Shown here piece by piece: positions 14,483 to 22,098 of a stretch of 27,882 nt of DNA (position 1 is the stretch's first letter; each line of letters starts with the position of its first letter). The notes below the pieces were generated by a model. It ran no database searches. It saw nothing but the letters and a program-made list of their open reading frames with translations, and had not been told where the DNA came from. A program made the position numbers and the translations under genes. This DNA is from a virus (taxonomy: Duplodnaviria; Caudoviricetes). The stretch spans positions 1 to 27,882 of IMG/VR virus record IMGVR_UViG_3300042868_005222; one strand, given 5' to 3'.

Positions 14483-14515
14483 AACGTAGAGTTCGCTCGC
14501 CCACTGTCAACTTCC
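14483..14515 (-). promoter_or_regulatory. Sigma70-type promoter P1
   Basis: GGAAG-TTGACA-N16-TACGTT. Shares GGAAGTTGACA and GCGAGCGAA with P2. Confidence 0.8.
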
Positions 14516-14577: not shown

Positions 14578-14832
14578 ATGTCGGAGCCGACCACAAGTGC
14601 CACCAAGGCGACCACCAAGCTGTCCACGCTGATCGAGCAGACCGGCTTCACGCAATACCAGGTCGCCCGCCAGCTCGGCCTTTCCCCGAACACCATCTAC
14701 TCGTGGTGCCGCGGCCTGGCTCGACCATGGAGGACGAAGGCCTACCGGCTTTCGACGTTCCTCGGCATCTCCATCACCGAGTTGATGTTGTCTTGGCAGG
14801 CCGGTGTTCCCAAGCGTCGGCGTCGGTCGTAA
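14578..14832 (+). CDS. XRE/Cro-CI family HTH transcriptional regulator
   Basis: LIEQTGFTQYQVARQLGLSPNTIYSWCRGLARP...LSTFLGISITEL. It is the only credible plus-strand gene. Confidence 0.9.
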   Translation: MSEPTTSATKATTKLSTLIEQTGFTQYQVARQLGLSPNTIYSWCRGLARPWRTKAYRLSTFLGISITELMLSWQAGVPKRRRRS

Positions 14833-14844
14833 GCGCCACGAGCT

Positions 14845-14898
14845 GCGGATCTACACCAGGTCGGGCGGATCTACACCACCTGCGGCTGAACTACGCCA
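14845..14898. repeat. Three 14-bp direct repeats with exact 20-bp period
   Basis: GCGGATCTACACCA at 14845 and 14865, and GCTGAACTACGCCA (11/14) at 14885. Confidence 0.85.
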
Positions 14899-14932
14899 CC
14901 TCCACGCTTTCGGAGCGGCGCAAGTAGGGGGG

Positions 14933-15238
14933 CTTCCTTCACTTTCTTCAACCTTTCTTCAAGGGGTCAACTTGAAGAAAGGTCCGAACGTAACTGTATG
15001 TATTATATATACTTAATATATATAGTATACCTTATTTCAATACTTCAAGGCTACCCTCCTTCCCAAGTTAGGGTAAAGTTAGACCCCCTAGTCTCTCCCT
15101 CCACGGTGGGGGTGGCTTATTTCAAGAAATAAGGGTCCAAGCGATCCCATTTCGCGCCGCAAGTCGTTGCCTTGCGCGGGGTTCTAGCTCGGACCCTTTC
15201 TTCAAGACTTCCTTCAACTCGACCCTTTCTTCAAGGGG
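14933..15238. other. Putative phage replication origin (iterons plus AT-rich unwinding element)
   Basis: Many CTTTCTTCAA-like repeats. 13-bp inverted repeat 14951-14963/14971-14983. Almost pure A/T tract at ~14997-15029. 15-bp direct repeat at 15192 and 15221. Directly downstream of the primase gene. Confidence 0.75.
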
Positions 15239-17417
15239 CGAGGAAGTCGCGCGCGATCAGGACGGTCTTCCGGCGTCCGAGCGTCACGGTCTCCTGCGTC
15301 ACGACCTCTTCGCCTTCGACGAGCGAGGCCAGCACGTCCTTACGCTCGCTGCGACGCAGCCACTGGGTCTTGCGGCTCAGTTGGGCCATGGTGATGCCCA
15401 TGGGCCCAGCGTCGCGGACGAGCCGCAGCACGCGCTTCTGCATGGCCTGGACGGCGTTGTCGGCCATGGTCTCGGCCGCCTCGGCGCAGGTGCGCTCGAT
15501 GCACCAGGACGCGAGCTCGCCCGCCCACTCGACGTCATCGACGCTGATGCGGTCGGACGGGTCGCGGCAGACCGAGCGAAGCAGCGCCAGCTTCTCCACG
15601 TGCTCCGTGAACCGCGCCCAAAGGTCCGCAAAGGCCGCCAGTTCGCTCCTGCGCAGTTCCATGATGCGAACGTCGTTCCGGTCCGCCAACGAGCCCAGAA
15701 GCGATTCTGCGGCCTCCTGGTAGGCCACCTTGCGGCAGACGCCGTGCAGGTTGCCTTGCCGACGCGTCAGCCGCTCCAGTTCGCGCAGGCGTTCGAGCAC
15801 GTAGGCGGGCGGATCGTCGCGGTCTACCGTCTGCCGTTGCGGGAGAGCGTCATCGGACACGAACACCAGCAGACGGTTTAGGAAGCCGTCACGGATGGCG
15901 CCCGAGTCCATGCTTGAGAACAGCTCGCTCGGCACGCCGGTGCCGTAGAAGCACAGGTGCGGCTCCTCCAGCGGCGTCGGCGCGTTGATGCGGCGGTCCG
16001 CGTAGGCGGCCGCGAGCCAGGTGTCGCCTGCGCACGAGAACAGCTCGAGCAAGGTGCGCTTGATGCCGAGCTGGTGACCGCCCGCGTTCGGGTGGGTCAC
16101 CTGCTGGAGAAACTTGGTCATCTCGTCGATCAAGCAGACGTGCGACCTGGTCTGCTCATCGACCAGCGAGGAGCGGATGCCGCTGTCGGACTTCCACTCG
16201 CTCGGGCCGATCCAGTTGCTCAGGCCGGCGAGCGCGAAGGCCCGCTGCGGCAGACGCAGGGACGCGTTCTTGCCGCTGGCCGTCTCAGCGATGCCGAGCA
16301 TGTAGAGGTTGGTGCGCAGGCCGCCACGGGTCTGGACGCGCCGACCCATCAGAGCGCCCATGCACGCGAGCACGGACGCCAGGCAGAGCGACGGTTGCCT
16401 GCGGATCGACTGCGTCAGCATCCACGACACCAGCTCGCCGATGATGCCGGGCACGTCGAGGAGCTTGCGCGGGAACGGACGCTTCTGGAGCTGCCGCGGC
16501 GCGTAGTCCGGCTCGGGCTCGGGGACTTCGATGTCGCCCGCCAGCTCCTGCAACACGCCGGGCATCCAGCCGCCGTCTCGGGCCAGGTGAAACAGCGTGC
16601 CGAGCGTGATCTCGGAACCGTCCCAGCGGAACTCCTTGAACGAGTTCCACCGCCTGCGCTGGTCCTTGGGCGTGAACTTGCCCGACTGCGCCGACCACTC
16701 GCACCAGATCTCGTAGGCCTGGTCCTTCGCGCCGGTGCTCTTGAGCGCCATGCCGACTTGCAGCCACAAGTCGTGCGGGTCCGGGTCCACGTGCTTGAGC
16801 GCGTCCTCGATCGACGCAACGTCTGCGCCCGACAACGGCATGGCGTCGCTGGACTCCGCGCCAAAGTTCTCGCCGCCACGGTGGCTGCCGCACAGTTCGC
16901 GCACCCAACCCGGCATCTGGTCGATGTCGCTGACGCCGTCGCTGTCCACGTCGAACGGGTCGCCCGTGCGCCACTCACGGCCAGGTGATGCAGGCGACGG
17001 CAGGACCACGTAGCCGCCGACGGCGCGGACGTCGACGCCAGGCCGCACGCCGACGCGCGAGCTGACCGGCGGGTTGGGCAGCGAGTAGAACAGGTGACGG
17101 CCGCCGCGTGGCGTCGTGGCGATCAGGCCGCACAGGTCGCGGCCGTGGTCTTGCAGCAGCACAGACCAGACGGCCGGTCCGTCAATCGACTTGGTCGGGT
17201 CGTAGTCGAGGTCGATGACGGCGAGGCTGCTGCGCTCGCAATCGACGCCGACCTGTGCATCTGGCCACTGCGCCCACCACGCGGCGAGACGCGCGGGATC
17301 GTTGGTGGCTTCCTTGTGGCCGTGTTGGGTGAACGGGTGCTTGTTAGCGCGGACTGGGAACACCAGCCAGCCGCGTGCTGCGTATCGCAGCGCCGCATCG
17401 AGAGGAGAGGCGAACAT
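15231..17417 (-). CDS. Bifunctional primase-polymerase with PriCT-2 and C-terminal DUF3987-like ATPase/helicase region
   Basis: Prim-Pol motifs AALRYAARGWLVFP, VIDLD, TPRGGRHLF, DVRAVGGYVVLP. PriCT-2 WLQVGMALK...WCEWS...TLGTLFHLA. P-loop-like AETASGKN, LIDE and DGFLNRLL. Confidence 0.9.
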   Translation of the reverse strand: MFASPLDAALRYAARGWLVFPVRANKHPFTQHGHKEATNDPARLAAWWAQWPDAQVGVDCERSSLAVIDLDYDPTKSIDGPAVWSVLLQDHGRDLCGLIATTPRGGRHLFYSLPNPPVSSRVGVRPGVDVRAVGGYVVLPSPASPGREWRTGDPFDVDSDGVSDIDQMPGWVRELCGSHRGGENFGAESSDAMPLSGADVASIEDALKHVDPDPHDLWLQVGMALKSTGAKDQAYEIWCEWSAQSGKFTPKDQRRRWNSFKEFRWDGSEITLGTLFHLARDGGWMPGVLQELAGDIEVPEPEPDYAPRQLQKRPFPRKLLDVPGIIGELVSWMLTQSIRRQPSLCLASVLACMGALMGRRVQTRGGLRTNLYMLGIAETASGKNASLRLPQRAFALAGLSNWIGPSEWKSDSGIRSSLVDEQTRSHVCLIDEMTKFLQQVTHPNAGGHQLGIKRTLLELFSCAGDTWLAAAYADRRINAPTPLEEPHLCFYGTGVPSELFSSMDSGAIRDGFLNRLLVFVSDDALPQRQTVDRDDPPAYVLERLRELERLTRRQGNLHGVCRKVAYQEAAESLLGSLADRNDVRIMELRRSELAAFADLWARFTEHVEKLALLRSVCRDPSDRISVDDVEWAGELASWCIERTCAEAAETMADNAVQAMQKRVLRLVRDAGPMGITMAQLSRKTQWLRRSERKDVLASLVEGEEVVTQETVTLGRRKTVLIARDFLAP

Positions 17418-19072
17418 CAGAAGGGGACCTCAGAGTAGTCAACGTGAGGGGTGGGAGGAGGAGCGTCTGGTTCGTGGATGCCTGGTTCAACTTTGCAGAG
17501 CACCTTCTTGATCTCGGGCCACTCGCCGCCGAGCTCGACGGTGATGGTCAGCGGCTGCGCCAACTCGGCCTTGCGCTCGATGGCTTCCGCGACCGAGCCA
17601 GGGACCGGCGCCTGCGCACGCGAGAGCCACCAGCGGGCTGCGCGTTCGCCTGCGTAGCCTTCGTGCTCGAGGCAGATCCACTCGTTGAACTCGCCGAAGT
17701 CGCCTGCGCGGTAGGTGACGCGCAGCACAGGCACGACCTTGCCCTGCTTCTGATGACGGCGGTATTCGACGCCCGTGACGTCGTAGGTCTCGATCTGCTT
17801 CGGCTCCAAGCCAGCGATGGCCACGGCCTCTGCGGGCCGCTCGTCGTGCGTGATCTCTCGCGGCGGCCACTCGTATCCGCACTCTGGGCACTGCAACACG
17901 GCCGTCGCCACAAAGGACTGGCAGTTCGGACACTTCTTGCACGGCTTCTCGCCCGCCTCGCCCTTGCGCTTGTCCTTTGCCTTGATGTTGTCCAGCGATC
18001 CATGGCGCTCGAAGTTGCCGCCGAAGTCGAGCATCAGGCAGTTCTGCTTGCCTTCGGCCAGGCGGAAGCCGCGACCGGCCATCTGCACGAATAAGCCCGG
18101 CGAGCACGTCGGCCGCAGCAGCGCGATCAGATCCACCTGCGGCGCATCGAAGCCCGTGGTCAGCACCGAGACGTTGACGATGCAGCGGATAGAGTTTGCC
18201 TTGAACTCCTTCACGACACGGTCACGCTCGGCCTTGTCGGTGTCGCCGAACACGGTGGCGACGTTGACGCCCGCTTCGCGCAGCTCGGCCGCGACGGCTT
18301 CGGCGTGCTTGATGCCGCAGCAGAACACCAGCCACGACTTGCGGTCCTGGCCACGCGCGATGATCTCGCCGACCGCGGCCGACACGAGACCTGGTGCCAT
18401 GGCCGCCGACTCCAGCTCGCCCGCGATGAACTCACCGCCGCGGATGTGCACGTCGCCGGTCTCGATCTCGACCTTGCTGCCGCGAGCGATGGTCGGCGAC
18501 AGGAAGCCGTCGTTGATCAGGCTGACCAGGTCGGCGTCGTATGCGATGCCGTGGAACAGCCGATCGTCGCCTTCGTGCAGCGTGCCGCTGTCGGTGCGGT
18601 ATGGCGTCGCGGTGAGCCCCATCACGCGCATGTTGTTGTTCATGCTGCCAAGGTCACCGAGGAACGTGCGATACATGCCGAAGCCGTCCTTCGGCACCAG
18701 GTGCGCTTCGTCGATCAGCACAAGATCAGTCCAGCCGATCTGCGCGGCCTTGCCGTAGACCGATTGGATGCCGCAGAACAGGACCTGCGCTCCTTCCTCG
18801 CGGCGTCCGATGCCTGCGCTGTAGATGCCAACGGGCACGTCGGGCCAGTATCGCCTGGCCTGCGCGCAGTTCTGCTCGATCAGTTCCTTGACGTGCGTCA
18901 CGACCACGATGCGCGTGTCGGGCCACTCCGTCAGTGCGTGCTTGATCAGGCCCGCGATGACGAGCGACTTGCCAGCGCCCGTCGGCAACACCACCAGCGG
19001 GTTGCCCAAGTTGTTCCCCATCCATTCCAGCGACGCCTCGATCGCGCGCTGTTGATATCCGCGAAGCTCCAT
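17417..19072 (-). CDS. SF2 DEAH helicase (RadD/YejH-like) with Zn finger
   Basis: LRGYQ, PTGAGKS, IDEAH, TATP, LTTGFDAP, QMAGRGFR, CPNC...CPECG. Confidence 0.95.
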   Translation of the reverse strand: MELRGYQQRAIEASLEWMGNNLGNPLVVLPTGAGKSLVIAGLIKHALTEWPDTRIVVVTHVKELIEQNCAQARRYWPDVPVGIYSAGIGRREEGAQVLFCGIQSVYGKAAQIGWTDLVLIDEAHLVPKDGFGMYRTFLGDLGSMNNNMRVMGLTATPYRTDSGTLHEGDDRLFHGIAYDADLVSLINDGFLSPTIARGSKVEIETGDVHIRGGEFIAGELESAAMAPGLVSAAVGEIIARGQDRKSWLVFCCGIKHAEAVAAELREAGVNVATVFGDTDKAERDRVVKEFKANSIRCIVNVSVLTTGFDAPQVDLIALLRPTCSPGLFVQMAGRGFRLAEGKQNCLMLDFGGNFERHGSLDNIKAKDKRKGEAGEKPCKKCPNCQSFVATAVLQCPECGYEWPPREITHDERPAEAVAIAGLEPKQIETYDVTGVEYRRHQKQGKVVPVLRVTYRAGDFGEFNEWICLEHEGYAGERAARWWLSRAQAPVPGSVAEAIERKAELAQPLTITVELGGEWPEIKKVLCKVEPGIHEPDAPPPTPHVDYSEVPF

Positions 19073-19095
19073 GCGTTGTCCTCGTTCAGTTGTTC

Positions 19096-19136
19096 AATGA
19101 AAACGGCCCGCACGCCATGTCCAAGCGAGCGGGCCG
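19096..19136 (-). terminator. Intrinsic terminator between SSB and helicase genes
   Basis: CGGCCCGC...GCGGGCCG 8-bp stem (19104-19111/19129-19136) followed by TTTTCATT on the minus strand. Confidence 0.65.
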
Positions 19137-19158
19137 CGTGTTGGTCATGCGACCTCAA

Positions 19159-19681: not shown

Positions 19682-20437
19682 TCAGGACACCGTGTCCGCG
19701 ATCGCGCCCATGAGTTGGTTCCATCCCGCCTGCGGGTCGTTGGCAGGGATGGGGATCTGGTCCGGCAAGCGGTAGCGGTTCTTCGCACGGAAGGCCGGGC
19801 GCTCGGTGGTCATCAGCACGCGCGAGCCATCGCCCACGCCACGCTTGCGGTCACCGCTGACCACGGCCGTGACGCGGTAGTTGGCGAACAGCACAGCGTC
19901 GGCCCAATCGACGATCGTCGCTTCGGCGAGCTTGTGCAGGCGCAACTGGTAGCGGTCGTATGCATCGACCTCGGGCGACTCGAAGCGCACGACCTGGCTG
20001 TGGCCGATCAGCACGACGGTGATGCCCTTCGCGCGCAGCTTGTCGAATCCGTTGGTCAGCCGACGCCACTCCATCGCCGCAAACGTGAAGCCCTTGCCGT
20101 AGCCGAACTCCTCGATGTTCTTCTTGCCGTTCTCCTCGCAGACGTGTTGCCACAGCAGCGGCTCAAGCGCGTCGAGCGAGTCCAAGATCACCGTGTGGAA
20201 GTCGTGCTGCTCGTTGATCAGCACGGCCATGGCTTCGAGCACCTGGCGGTAGCTCGTGGCCTTCGGGAAGGCGGGCGCCGTGATCGTGCCCAAGCCGTCT
20301 TCGGTCTGGATGAAGACCGGGTTCGACGCGCAGGCGGCCAGCGTGGTCTTGCCGATGCCGGGGACGCCGTAGATGACGATGCGCGGAGCCTGCGGGACGT
20401 TCTGTTGGATGTCGTTCAGGGAAATCATGTCGTTCAC
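19682..20437 (-). CDS. Sak4-like AAA ATPase (phage ssDNA-annealing protein, AAA_24)
   Basis: IYGVPGIGKTT, ILDSLD, FGYGKG, LIGHS, AKNRY. Adjacent to the DUF669 SSB. Alternative ATG at 20428. Confidence 0.9.
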   Translation of the reverse strand: MNDMISLNDIQQNVPQAPRIVIYGVPGIGKTTLAACASNPVFIQTEDGLGTITAPAFPKATSYRQVLEAMAVLINEQHDFHTVILDSLDALEPLLWQHVCEENGKKNIEEFGYGKGFTFAAMEWRRLTNGFDKLRAKGITVVLIGHSQVVRFESPEVDAYDRYQLRLHKLAEATIVDWADAVLFANYRVTAVVSGDRKRGVGDGSRVLMTTERPAFRAKNRYRLPDQIPIPANDPQAGWNQLMGAIADTVS

Positions 20438-20480
20438 TCGTTCAGTCGGTTGCTAGGTCTGCGACGTGCAGACCGGCGGG

Positions 20481-20513
20481 AAGCTAGCGATTCGCTCGCG
20501 TGTGTCAACTTCC
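20481..20513 (-). promoter_or_regulatory. Sigma70-type promoter P2 of the replication operon, with overlapping 17-bp palindrome
   Basis: GGAAG-TTGACA-N16-TAGCTT. GCGAGC-N5-GCTAGC at 20483-20499. A 7-bp hairpin (20456-20474) sits at the predicted transcript 5' end. Confidence 0.8.
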
Positions 20514-20687
20514 TTGCAGCTTTTCTAGAGCAGCAACGGAAAGCGCAATGGCGACGAACCAGAGCAACGAGCACAGGACCAGCGCGGCCCAGCAGTGGAG
20601 CTTGCTTGATGCCCCAGCGTCGCAGGACTTAGCGCAGGGGCGGAGAAGGCAGGAGCCGAAGGCGTGGCAAGGCATGGTGGGAAGGAT

Positions 20688-20877
20688 GCCCACGACGCGC
20701 CCGGTCAAGAATCGGAAGGCCCGGCACGGTCATGCCGGAGGCTCGTCGTGGGCGGTGTGCTGAGAAAGTGACCGGCGGCGACCCCTCTTACGAACATGCG
20801 CTGCTCTCGTTCAACGCATCACTGTCGCCGCCGGTCTGGGAGGGAGGCACGGCCCTCGCAAGCCGTGCCCATGTCGC
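20688..20877 (-). ncRNA. Putative structured non-coding RNA (unknown family)
   Basis: Three consecutive stem domains with perfect 8-, 13- and 10-bp helices and nested stems. G-U pairs favour the minus strand. Begins just downstream of promoter P3. No credible ORF covers it. Confidence 0.6.
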
Positions 20878-20883
20878 GGCGGA

Positions 20884-20916
20884 ATCGTGGCAAGCGTTCT
20901 GCTTGCTGTCAACTTC
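20884..20916 (-). promoter_or_regulatory. Sigma70-type promoter P3 with palindromic spacer
   Basis: GAAG-TTGACA-N17-CACGAT. The 17-nt spacer is the palindrome GCAAGC-N5-GCTTGC (20890-20906). Confidence 0.65.
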
Positions 20917-21173
20917 TACTGACCGGCGTCGCCGTCCAGTGGGTAGATATCCACCATGCGCTGCCACTCGCCATAGACGTCAAGCAGCGCGGCCGCGTCG
21001 AGCTGCGCCGCGAACAGGAAGACCTGCGCGAGCGCGTCCTCGAGGCGGTCCATCTTCGCTCGCTCTTCAGCGGGAGCGAGAGATTCGACGCCGAGGCCGC
21101 GGACCATTGCCAGATACTGCTCGCGGATGCGCTGCACTTCGGCCTGGATGTTTGTCCTTCTCTGGTCCGCCAT
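20916..21173 (-). CDS. Hypothetical helical protein (85 aa)
   Basis: Protein-like composition. Overlaps the phosphoesterase C-terminal tail by 107 nt. Confidence 0.65.
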   Translation of the reverse strand: MADQRRTNIQAEVQRIREQYLAMVRGLGVESLAPAEERAKMDRLEDALAQVFLFAAQLDAAALLDVYGEWQRMVDIYPLDGDAGQ

Positions 21174-22098
21174 GGTTCACCGCTTGGTAGATGCGCCCGT
21201 CAACTAACAGCCTGCCGTCGTGGATGTGGTGCTGGCGGATCGAGACGGCGCCGTCCGTCTCTTCGATGCAGGAGAAGCCCTGCTGCCAGTCGGGGTCGTG
21301 CGTCCAGTCGGGGTCTGGGTCCGACAGGTGCCCGTTCTCAACTCCCCAGTGCACGCCGTTGCGGTCAGTGCGCGCCACGATGCCCATGCGGTGAGTATGG
21401 CCCATGGCGACTGAGCCGCCGCGCCTGGTCATGTGACCACGCACGGAGTTGCCAGCGTCCTTGCGGATGATGCTGCCGTGGAAGATCTCGAACGGCGGGA
21501 CAGTGAGCTTGCACCGCTGGTCGATGAACTCGATGCCCAACGCTTGCAGGTCCAGCAGCTCGTCGAGCGCGAGGCTCGTCACGCTGGACAGCTCGGGCGC
21601 ATGCTGCGTCAGATACCGCTCCAAGCGGTGCTCGTGGTTGCCCATCGTGTAGTAGATGCGCGCCTTCTTGTGATCGTGGCGCAGCACGCGCAGAAACTGT
21701 CGGGCTTCGTTGATCTCGTCCTGGAATGTGATCGGGTTGTGCTTGTCCTTTGGGTGCGACGAGATCTCTTGCGCGTCTAGGATGTCGCCGTTGAGCACGA
21801 TGACGGTCGGATTCCAGTCGCGCGCGAACTCCAGCGCGATGGCCAGCGCGGCCTGGTCGTGGTAGGGGATGTGGATGTCGGACAGGATCAGGCAGCGGTT
21901 GGACGAGACCGGCTTGGCCTGCACCGTATGCAAGCGGACTTGCACTTGGTCACGCTTGATGACGAGCCGCGTCACCTCGCTGCGCATGACGCATCGAACG
22001 CGCCACTCGGTGACGCCTAACTCTCGGGCGACAGACTTTTGCGATTGCCCGCAAGTTACTCGAGCACGGATTAGTTCTTCGAGCTCGGCGCGTTCCAT
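21067..22098 (-). CDS. Calcineurin-like metallophosphoesterase with N-terminal HTH
   Basis: SDIH, NGDILD, GNHE, FHG and GHTH motifs. N-terminal SQKSVARELGVTEWRVR. Strong AAGGAGAGG SD. Confidence 0.9.
   Translation of the reverse strand: MERAELEELIRARVTCGQSQKSVARELGVTEWRVRCVMRSEVTRLVIKRDQVQVRLHTVQAKPVSSNRCLILSDIHIPYHDQAALAIALEFARDWNPTVIVLNGDILDAQEISSHPKDKHNPITFQDEINEARQFLRVLRHDHKKARIYYTMGNHEHRLERYLTQHAPELSSVTSLALDELLDLQALGIEFIDQRCKLTVPPFEIFHGSIIRKDAGNSVRGHMTRRGGSVAMGHTHRMGIVARTDRNGVHWGVENGHLSDPDPDWTHDPDWQQGFSCIEETDGAVSIRQHHIHDGRLLVDGRIYQAVNHGGPEKDKHPGRSAAHPRAVSGNGPRPRRRISRSR

Follow-up and report, generated by a model that had tools for sequence, protein, structure and literature searches.

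The window, as we call the whole stretch of 27,882 nucleotides analysed here, corresponds to a linear virus record of 27.9 kb with a completeness of ~51%; the DNA runs carrying it come mostly from lake and other freshwater metagenomes, and fewer from soil and wetland. No RNA run is listed as carrying it, and the one run that may be RNA has no contig across the stretch, neither of which bears on expression. Nearly all of its genes lie on the minus strand, in the order tail genes, metallophosphoesterase, 85-aa ORF, the non-coding element treated below, Sak4, SSB, helicase, primase, terminase, portal and capsid (Table 1). The GC content of the element (0.64) matches that of the rest of the window. 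The 85-aa ORF has no match in GTDB, though 21 relatives of it are encoded on Logan/JGI contigs, and the best relatives of Sak4 are at most 53% identical and scattered over many phyla. ARAGORN detected no tRNA or tmRNA gene in the window, no integrase was present among the ORFs scanned in G001, and none of the six terminator-like sites between 14000 and 23000 falls inside the element. The metallophosphoesterase gene (21067-22098) includes an N-terminal helix-turn-helix (Pfam HTH_Tnp_ISL3, E 1e-4, under the curated cut-off). Directly downstream of the primase gene lies an AT-rich origin candidate (14850-15230), with TTGAAGAAAGG or its complement at 14952, 14972, 15195 and 15224.

Table 1. Positions and properties of the features in and around the structured element
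Feature	Position	Strand	Description
Sak4-like ssDNA annealing protein	19682..20428	-	phrog_124, E 9e-45; first gene of the replication block
Promoter-like site P2	20486..20511	-	AAGTTGACA-N16-TAGCTT; overlaps stop codon of the small ORF, upstream of Sak4
56-aa ORF	20505..20675	-	Cys-rich N-terminus, predicted C-terminal membrane helix
12-nt pyrimidine tract	20676..20687	-	module B to start codon; no SD; mean unpaired probability 0.79
Module B	20688..20753	-	long outer helix, hairpin loop AUGACC (20728-20733), second, unpaired UUGACC (20703-20708)
Pyrimidine-rich linker 2	20754..20769	-	from sequence; used in start-region pairing test
Module A	20770..20836	-	13-bp outer helix, inner hairpin, purine-rich loop, asymmetric internal loop with AGGGG (20782-20786)
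Pyrimidine-rich linker 1	20837..20846	-	anti-SD of the preliminary description; varies in L003 and L004
Accessory hairpin D1	20845..20870	-	U-GCGA-G tetraloop; hairpin itself only in the window lineage
Promoter-like site P3	20884..20915	-	-35 box AAGTTGACA (20907-20915), 17-nt spacer, weak -10 CACGAT (20884-20889)
85-aa ORF	20916..21173	-	function unassigned; upstream neighbour of the element, after metallophosphoesterase

The sequence AAGTTGACA occurs three times in the window, always on the minus strand, against 0.09 copies expected: ahead of the element, ahead of Sak4, and at 14505-14513, where 16 nt separate it from TACGTT. In the related lineages L005 and L006 (see below) the arrangement of P2 is repeated and the box lies 27-30 nt upstream of the leader, and in L016 no TTGACA box precedes the leader. 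A strict sigma-70 scan called no promoter at P3, which is a putative one from its sequence. The spacer of P3 (20890-20906) holds a 6-bp inverted repeat, GCAAGC-N5-GCTTGC, and that of L006 a 5-bp inverted repeat; the former may be an operator. Divergent from the third promoter-like site, on the strand opposite to most genes, an 84-aa helix-turn-helix transcriptional regulator is encoded at 14578-14832 of the plus strand (phrog_8, E 3e-10).

Fold and conservation of the element

A preliminary description of the element proposed five stems on the minus strand, and all five are present in the sequence: the D1 stem (20860-20869/20846-20855; 8 Watson-Crick and 2 G-U pairs, loop GCGA), the outer (20824-20836/20770-20782; 13 of 13 Watson-Crick) and inner stem (20812-20819/20796-20803; 7 Watson-Crick, 1 G-U) of its second domain, and the outer stem (20744-20753/20688-20697; 10 of 10 Watson-Crick) and hairpin (6 Watson-Crick, 1 G-U) of its third. 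While this inventory stands, it missed the bulged AGGGG, which is conserved, the YUGAYC motif pair and the 56-aa ORF downstream. The unpaired linkers are pyrimidine-rich, as had been noted: the exterior unpaired bases of the window leader are 14 C, 7 U, 7 A and 1 G. On the minus strand, positions 20680-20885 fold at -99.3 kcal/mol, better than any of 200 dinucleotide shuffles (z -3.31), whereas on the plus strand 39 of the 200 shuffles do as well (z -0.85); for 20676-20877 the sense and antisense z-scores are -4.34 and -0.94. Covariance models of Rfam 15 gave no match in the window at gathering score; the best matches of the element region and of the homologous leaders had chance-level E-values of 0.25-9.4, far under the gathering score, and none of three matches on L127/L193 reached it either. 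The view of the element as a structured, strand-specific, non-coding phage RNA outside known families is thus borne out by folding, by comparison and by the Rfam result. Folding alone is not decisive, since 2 of 70 sampled 200-nt minus-strand windows fold equally well, one of them within the origin candidate (14883-15082, z -4.7; 15283-15482, z -4.6), and the stronger support comes from comparative evidence.

Four lineages of uncultured freshwater phages were found to carry the element, namely that of the window and three distant ones, L005, L006 and L016, with ~76% identity in Sak4 or the phosphoesterase. Protein-anchored scans further yielded four close variants of the window (L003, L004, L092, L095), and L002 is apparently identical to it across the element region. 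Variation among the close variants affects 6 of the 104 positions paired with confidence and 17 of the 97 remaining ones (Fisher p 0.013); of the six, three retain their pair directly and three belong to the base of the inner stem, which is remodelled. Among the variants listed from seven DNA runs, the same pattern is seen. C-to-U changes in D1 (in L092, and at 20851 in the DNA-run variants) retain G-U pairs. The hairpin D1 itself is confined to the window lineage; its hexamer UGCGAG is found in all four leaders and lies within module A in the other three. Leader length varies through extra hairpins, from 202 nt in the window to 365, 282 and 414 nt in L005, L006 and L016. The sense strands of these three leaders fold with z-scores of -4.2, -3.5 and -5.5, their antisense strands with -2.1, -1.0 and -0.2, so that across the four leaders sense values of -3.5 to -5.5 stand against antisense values of -0.2 to -2.1.

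In module A, a helix of 13-18 bp carries an inner arm with purine-rich loops and an AGGGG bulge just 5' of its 3' strand in each lineage. In a hand-anchored alignment of the four lineages, 9 of the 13 helix columns show changes on both sides and none is unpaired. In an alignment of L005 and L006 made from sequence only, 6 of 14 pairs have both partners changed and every one of the 28 cells is paired, a result reached by 7 of 500 shuffles, with slid controls 26-56% paired. A model built from L005 and L006 alone and searched against 46 kb of sequence, made up of the window and the contig of L016, placed module A of L016 first (E 0.005) and that of the window second of 30 matches (E 0.017, 18.8 bits). 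A match in a coding region was nearly as good (E 0.023, 18.2 bits), and the homology of module A therefore leans also on synteny and on the AGGGG bulge.

The corresponding model of module B, searched over the same 46 kb, ranked module B of the window first of 21 matches (26.5 bits, E 4e-4) and that of L016 second (E 0.085); all four held-out E-values are rough and modest. The L005/L006 alignment of module B is fully paired (40 of 40 cells) with two two-sided changes, a result not beyond that of shuffles (134 of 500), and the model-fitted alignment of the four lineages, which leans towards the model and from whose count one antisense row was left out, has 76 of 78 cells paired. YUGAYC is present twice in module B of every lineage, once in the loop of the hairpin enclosed by the long helix and once unpaired outside it, and a third WGACC copy is found in the window, L005 and L006. 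These conserved motifs are located in loops and bulges; in two lineages one YUGAYC occupies a 5-bp stem with a 7-nt loop, a shape like that of an anticodon arm. All three motifs occur together in only 5 of 2000 random 300-nt minus-strand windows, and the element may itself be among these. The modules stand in the order A-B in the window, L005 and L006, and B-A in L016. Another UGACC precedes a hairpin between the SSB and helicase genes (window 19097-19140, minus strand), itself a weak match to the module B model (E 0.85).

Four independent lineages are too few for a formal covariation test, and the alignments of all four, hand-anchored or model-fitted, are biased towards the structure. Even so, we regard the element as very probably a real RNA structure under selection. 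It is very improbable that the hairpins work instead as signals in single-stranded DNA, for priming or recombination: genes for Sak4, SSB, helicase and primase do adjoin and the stems form with DNA parameters too, but the strand difference in the window then shrinks to a small one (-57.2 vs -54.3 kcal/mol), a promoter-like box stands just ahead of the element in three of the four lineages, and the window has a separate, AT-rich and repeat-bearing origin candidate near 14.9-15.2 kb.

Searches for further members remained within the known set. With blastn, the region gave no more than ten chance matches (E about 6) among 50,697 annotated phages, and protein-anchored scans found no member of the family outside the four lineages. 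A pattern scan for module B gave 82 loci, with the fold present in L005 and L006 only, and one for module A gave 97 loci, the three longest stems of which were those of L005, L016 and L006. Descriptor searches covering 1.0 and 2.1 Mb of loci revealed no further member; having been designed on known members, they are circular for those. A covariance-model search of 100 sources and 41 viral records likewise recovered known members only.

Module B is absent, together with the 56-aa ORF, from L017 (the complete record G003) and L096. Since G003 is a complete relative without module B, the element is dispensable for this phage group. In L017 (5452-5970) and L096 (3520-4060) the slot of the RNA is filled by two opposite-strand ORFs, one with CxxC pairs; this slot is an exchangeable cargo site. 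Upstream of it an ORF of ~100 aa resembling HExxH metallopeptidases is found in L018 (601-906), L005 (182-490), L016 (5180-5479) and L017 (5177-5455), with weak matches to Peptidase_M78/DUF6782; the window lineage has no HExxH ORF at that place. On the contig of L016 (L110, 16287-17749) the RNA is followed by an exonuclease and an Erf-like annealing gene in place of Sak4. As the RNA is kept there despite the replacement of Sak4, it travels with the late-gene side.

Linkers, loops and their possible partners

The preliminary description had suggested that the linkers sequester ribosome-binding sites. An RNA acting in this way, by pairing with SD sequences through its linkers, would fit the duplex of linker 1 with the SD consensus (-9.0 kcal/mol), the use of SD sequences by about half of the phage's genes, and the observation that all three linkers form better duplexes at start regions than at random sites. 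The last effect, however, is due to composition, as against 18 phage start regions the linkers perform like their own shuffles (p 0.17, 0.14 and 0.38), and linker 1 is altered from CCUCCCUCCC to CCUACCUCCC in L003 and L004, linker sequences being unconserved among the lineages. We give this function the slightest chance of all.

Similarly, a pseudoknot between the loop ACGAG and the adjacent UUCGU had been proposed. Both sequences exist in the window, but the interaction is not supported: UUCGU is deleted in two of the four close relatives (L003, L092), in which the loop is unchanged. Other pseudoknots, from loop or AGGGG to flank, were likewise rejected, no loop-to-flank pairing being better than with shuffled flanks (p 0.05-0.77), and a search within the molecule gave no conserved partner for either the loop or the bulge of module A. 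A resemblance of the loops in L005 and L006 to the double T-loop of T-boxes was dropped, the window and L016 having no such loops; nor did any of the four leaders contain a T-box or T-arm motif.

The suggestion of a ribozyme fared no better among known classes, as no Rfam ribozyme matched at gathering score or at E-values up to 5-10. A self-cleaving ribozyme of an undescribed class would account for a fold of several helices in which short unpaired motifs are conserved and loops are of the GNRA type, but besides the Rfam result there is no supported pseudoknot, the hammerhead core CUGANGA is absent from all four leaders, and swappable modules argue against a single catalytic core, so we consider this highly doubtful. 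Stacked terminators, raised earlier as an alternative, are not supported: no intrinsic terminator, in which a U tract would adjoin a GC hairpin, was found in the element, and U runs in the leaders reach 3-4 at most.

The module A loop sequence UGAACGAG (20795-20813) recurs upstream of the start codons of Sak4 (20426-20444) and helicase (19070-19088). This recurrence, seen in the window lineage only, may be mimicry of a translation-control site.

The small reading frame and a cis-acting leader

The 56-aa ORF begins 12 nt after the last helix of the element. Homologues 37-43% identical occupy the same place in L005 and L006, with four Cys and two Trp invariant, and of 30 residues that L005 and L006 share, 10 are encoded by different codons. 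All three proteins (56, 50 and 50 aa in the window, L005 and L006) have a strongly hydrophobic C-terminal stretch, with a best 19-residue hydropathy of 2.4-2.6; that of the window has no Pfam, PHROG or Atlas match. The gene changes fast, with 11 (L003), 10 (L004) and 2 non-synonymous differences per 168 nt among close strains, in which Sak4 shows 0 (L003), 2 (L004) and 1 per 741 nt. In L016 the next ORF encodes a hydrophobic peptide of 27 aa unrelated to the 56-aa ORF, so that a small hydrophobic ORF lies 3' of the element in all four cases. The duplex of the 56-aa ORF with the anti-SD amounts to -2.4 kcal/mol; 12 of 23 listed starts, some of them provisional, reach -5 or lower, as do 22% of 295 background ATGs. 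Over the four leaders the predicted unpaired probability is 0.41-0.79 for positions -14 to -1 and 0.56-0.93 for the AU of the AUG.

These features invite a reading of the element as a 5' leader acting in cis, by which translation of the SD-less small membrane protein would be either enabled or held back, much as in type I toxin mRNAs such as tisB, whose structured leader works through processing or a ribosome standby site. The mRNAs of such toxins (tisB/IstR-1, aapA1/IsoA1, hok/Sok) combine a long structured 5' region, under whose control they stand, with a small hydrophobic ORF (PMC8167048), an architecture that the element shares. In all four lineages the AUG follows the last helix at 9-19 nt, behind a pyrimidine tract; the ORF, small, hydrophobic and fast-changing, is conserved in three of them, and L017 and L096 lack both RNA and ORF. 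Because no terminator parts the RNA from the ORF and a hydrophobic ORF follows in each lineage, the case for a leader stays strong. Against it, an antisense TTGACA-type promoter site, from which an antitoxin could be transcribed, was found in none of the four regions; the full-length mRNA has no SD to sequester and, by predicted pairing, a start that is largely open; the order of modules is swapped in L016 ahead of a non-homologous ORF; and L009 has a short hydrophobic ORF ahead of Sak4 with the RNA absent. We therefore hold a leader function possible, but well short of an even chance.

Proposed function and related systems

The reading that we tentatively prefer, at a little under an even chance, is that the element is an early, stable, protein-binding RNA that acts as decoy or scaffold. 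Host RNA polymerase would transcribe it from P3 early in infection, a timing suggested by the -35 box that P3 shares with the promoters of the replication genes. One transcript would carry both the structured RNA and the SD-less ORF of the small membrane protein, and once its 3' portion had decayed, the structured 5' portion would persist as the functional RNA. Each module may constitute an independent binding unit, the long stems presumably holding the exposed motifs (two YUGAYC, one AGGGG) for protein binding, and the two like YUGAYC sites of module B could be bound by an RNA-binding protein that is dimeric or has two domains. From a switch acting in cis one would expect a constant register relative to a single start codon, and also something to hide or expose; as neither is seen, a function in trans is favoured. 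In favour of the decoy are also the structure kept in four lineages, the recovery by held-out models and the swapped module order. Against it stand the poor -10 box of P3, the missing TTGACA box in L016, the small number of lineages (four), the modest held-out E-values, the absence of module B from G003, and the lack of a terminator that would set the 3' end, so that in physical terms the RNA and the 5' leader of the small ORF are one molecule.

An improbable alternative to the decoy is a processing or insulation signal at the junction of late and early operons, in which the helices would be cut by RNase III or stabilise the 5' end, or Rho, loaded on the C-rich linkers, would stop read-through. 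Its location between the tail and phosphoesterase genes and the Sak4-SSB-helicase-primase block is apt, the helices of 13-18 bp with asymmetric internal loops may resemble T7 RNase III sites, and the exterior linkers are C-rich and G-poor in the window and L016; however, there is no U tract, and the doubled YUGAYC loop motifs and the promoter-like site directly ahead would be left unexplained.

Protein sponges of the CsrB/RsmZ type present repeated GGA in the loops of a multi-hairpin scaffold. The element resembles them in its repeated short loop motif on such a scaffold, and differs in having YUGAYC instead of GGA, only 2-3 copies and much longer helices; GGA occurs 0, 3, 6 and 6 times in the four leaders, with none in that of the window. 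Like GOLLD, ROOL and other Weinberg-type orphan ncRNAs, it is a multi-helix, apparently stand-alone RNA with unassigned function. GOLLD and ROOL are perhaps sometimes used by phages (PMC5737381); the element, in contrast, is much shorter (200-415 nt), has no Rfam match, no tRNA in the window, and swappable modules. With the moron represented by HK97 gene 15 (PMC3594210) it has in common that it can be exchanged as a unit, has a promoter-like site of its own, is variably present (absent from L017/G003 and L096) and comes with a small predicted membrane protein, but it has no terminator, a GC content like that of its surroundings, and includes a large structured RNA. Titles and abstract openings in the literature held no description of the element, which supplementary motif lists outside Rfam could contain, and the excerpted text of 10.64898/2026.09.15.751765 leaves phage unmentioned. 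What is new is the modules and the way they are shuffled; the kind, an orphan phage ncRNA or structured leader, is known.

Defined structures are available for few phage ncRNAs, and known partners for fewer still. That two uncatalogued modules retain fold and loop motifs amid changed order and neighbours points to binding units under selection. Were the partner a host defence or regulatory protein, the element would provide a new RNA-based route for phage takeover of the host; were it a leader, it would show how an SD-less gene is translated or restrained in a phage about half of whose listed genes have an SD. More speculatively, and rather unlikely as a whole, the element could represent a phage RNA class of a new sort, in which aptamer-like modules, acquired, lost and rearranged between lineages, are plugged together into a scaffold. 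Its twin YUGAYC sites would titrate away a host protein, either a defence nuclease or an RNA-binding regulator, as infection begins, and its transcript would also make a fast-evolving, Cys-rich membrane peptide.
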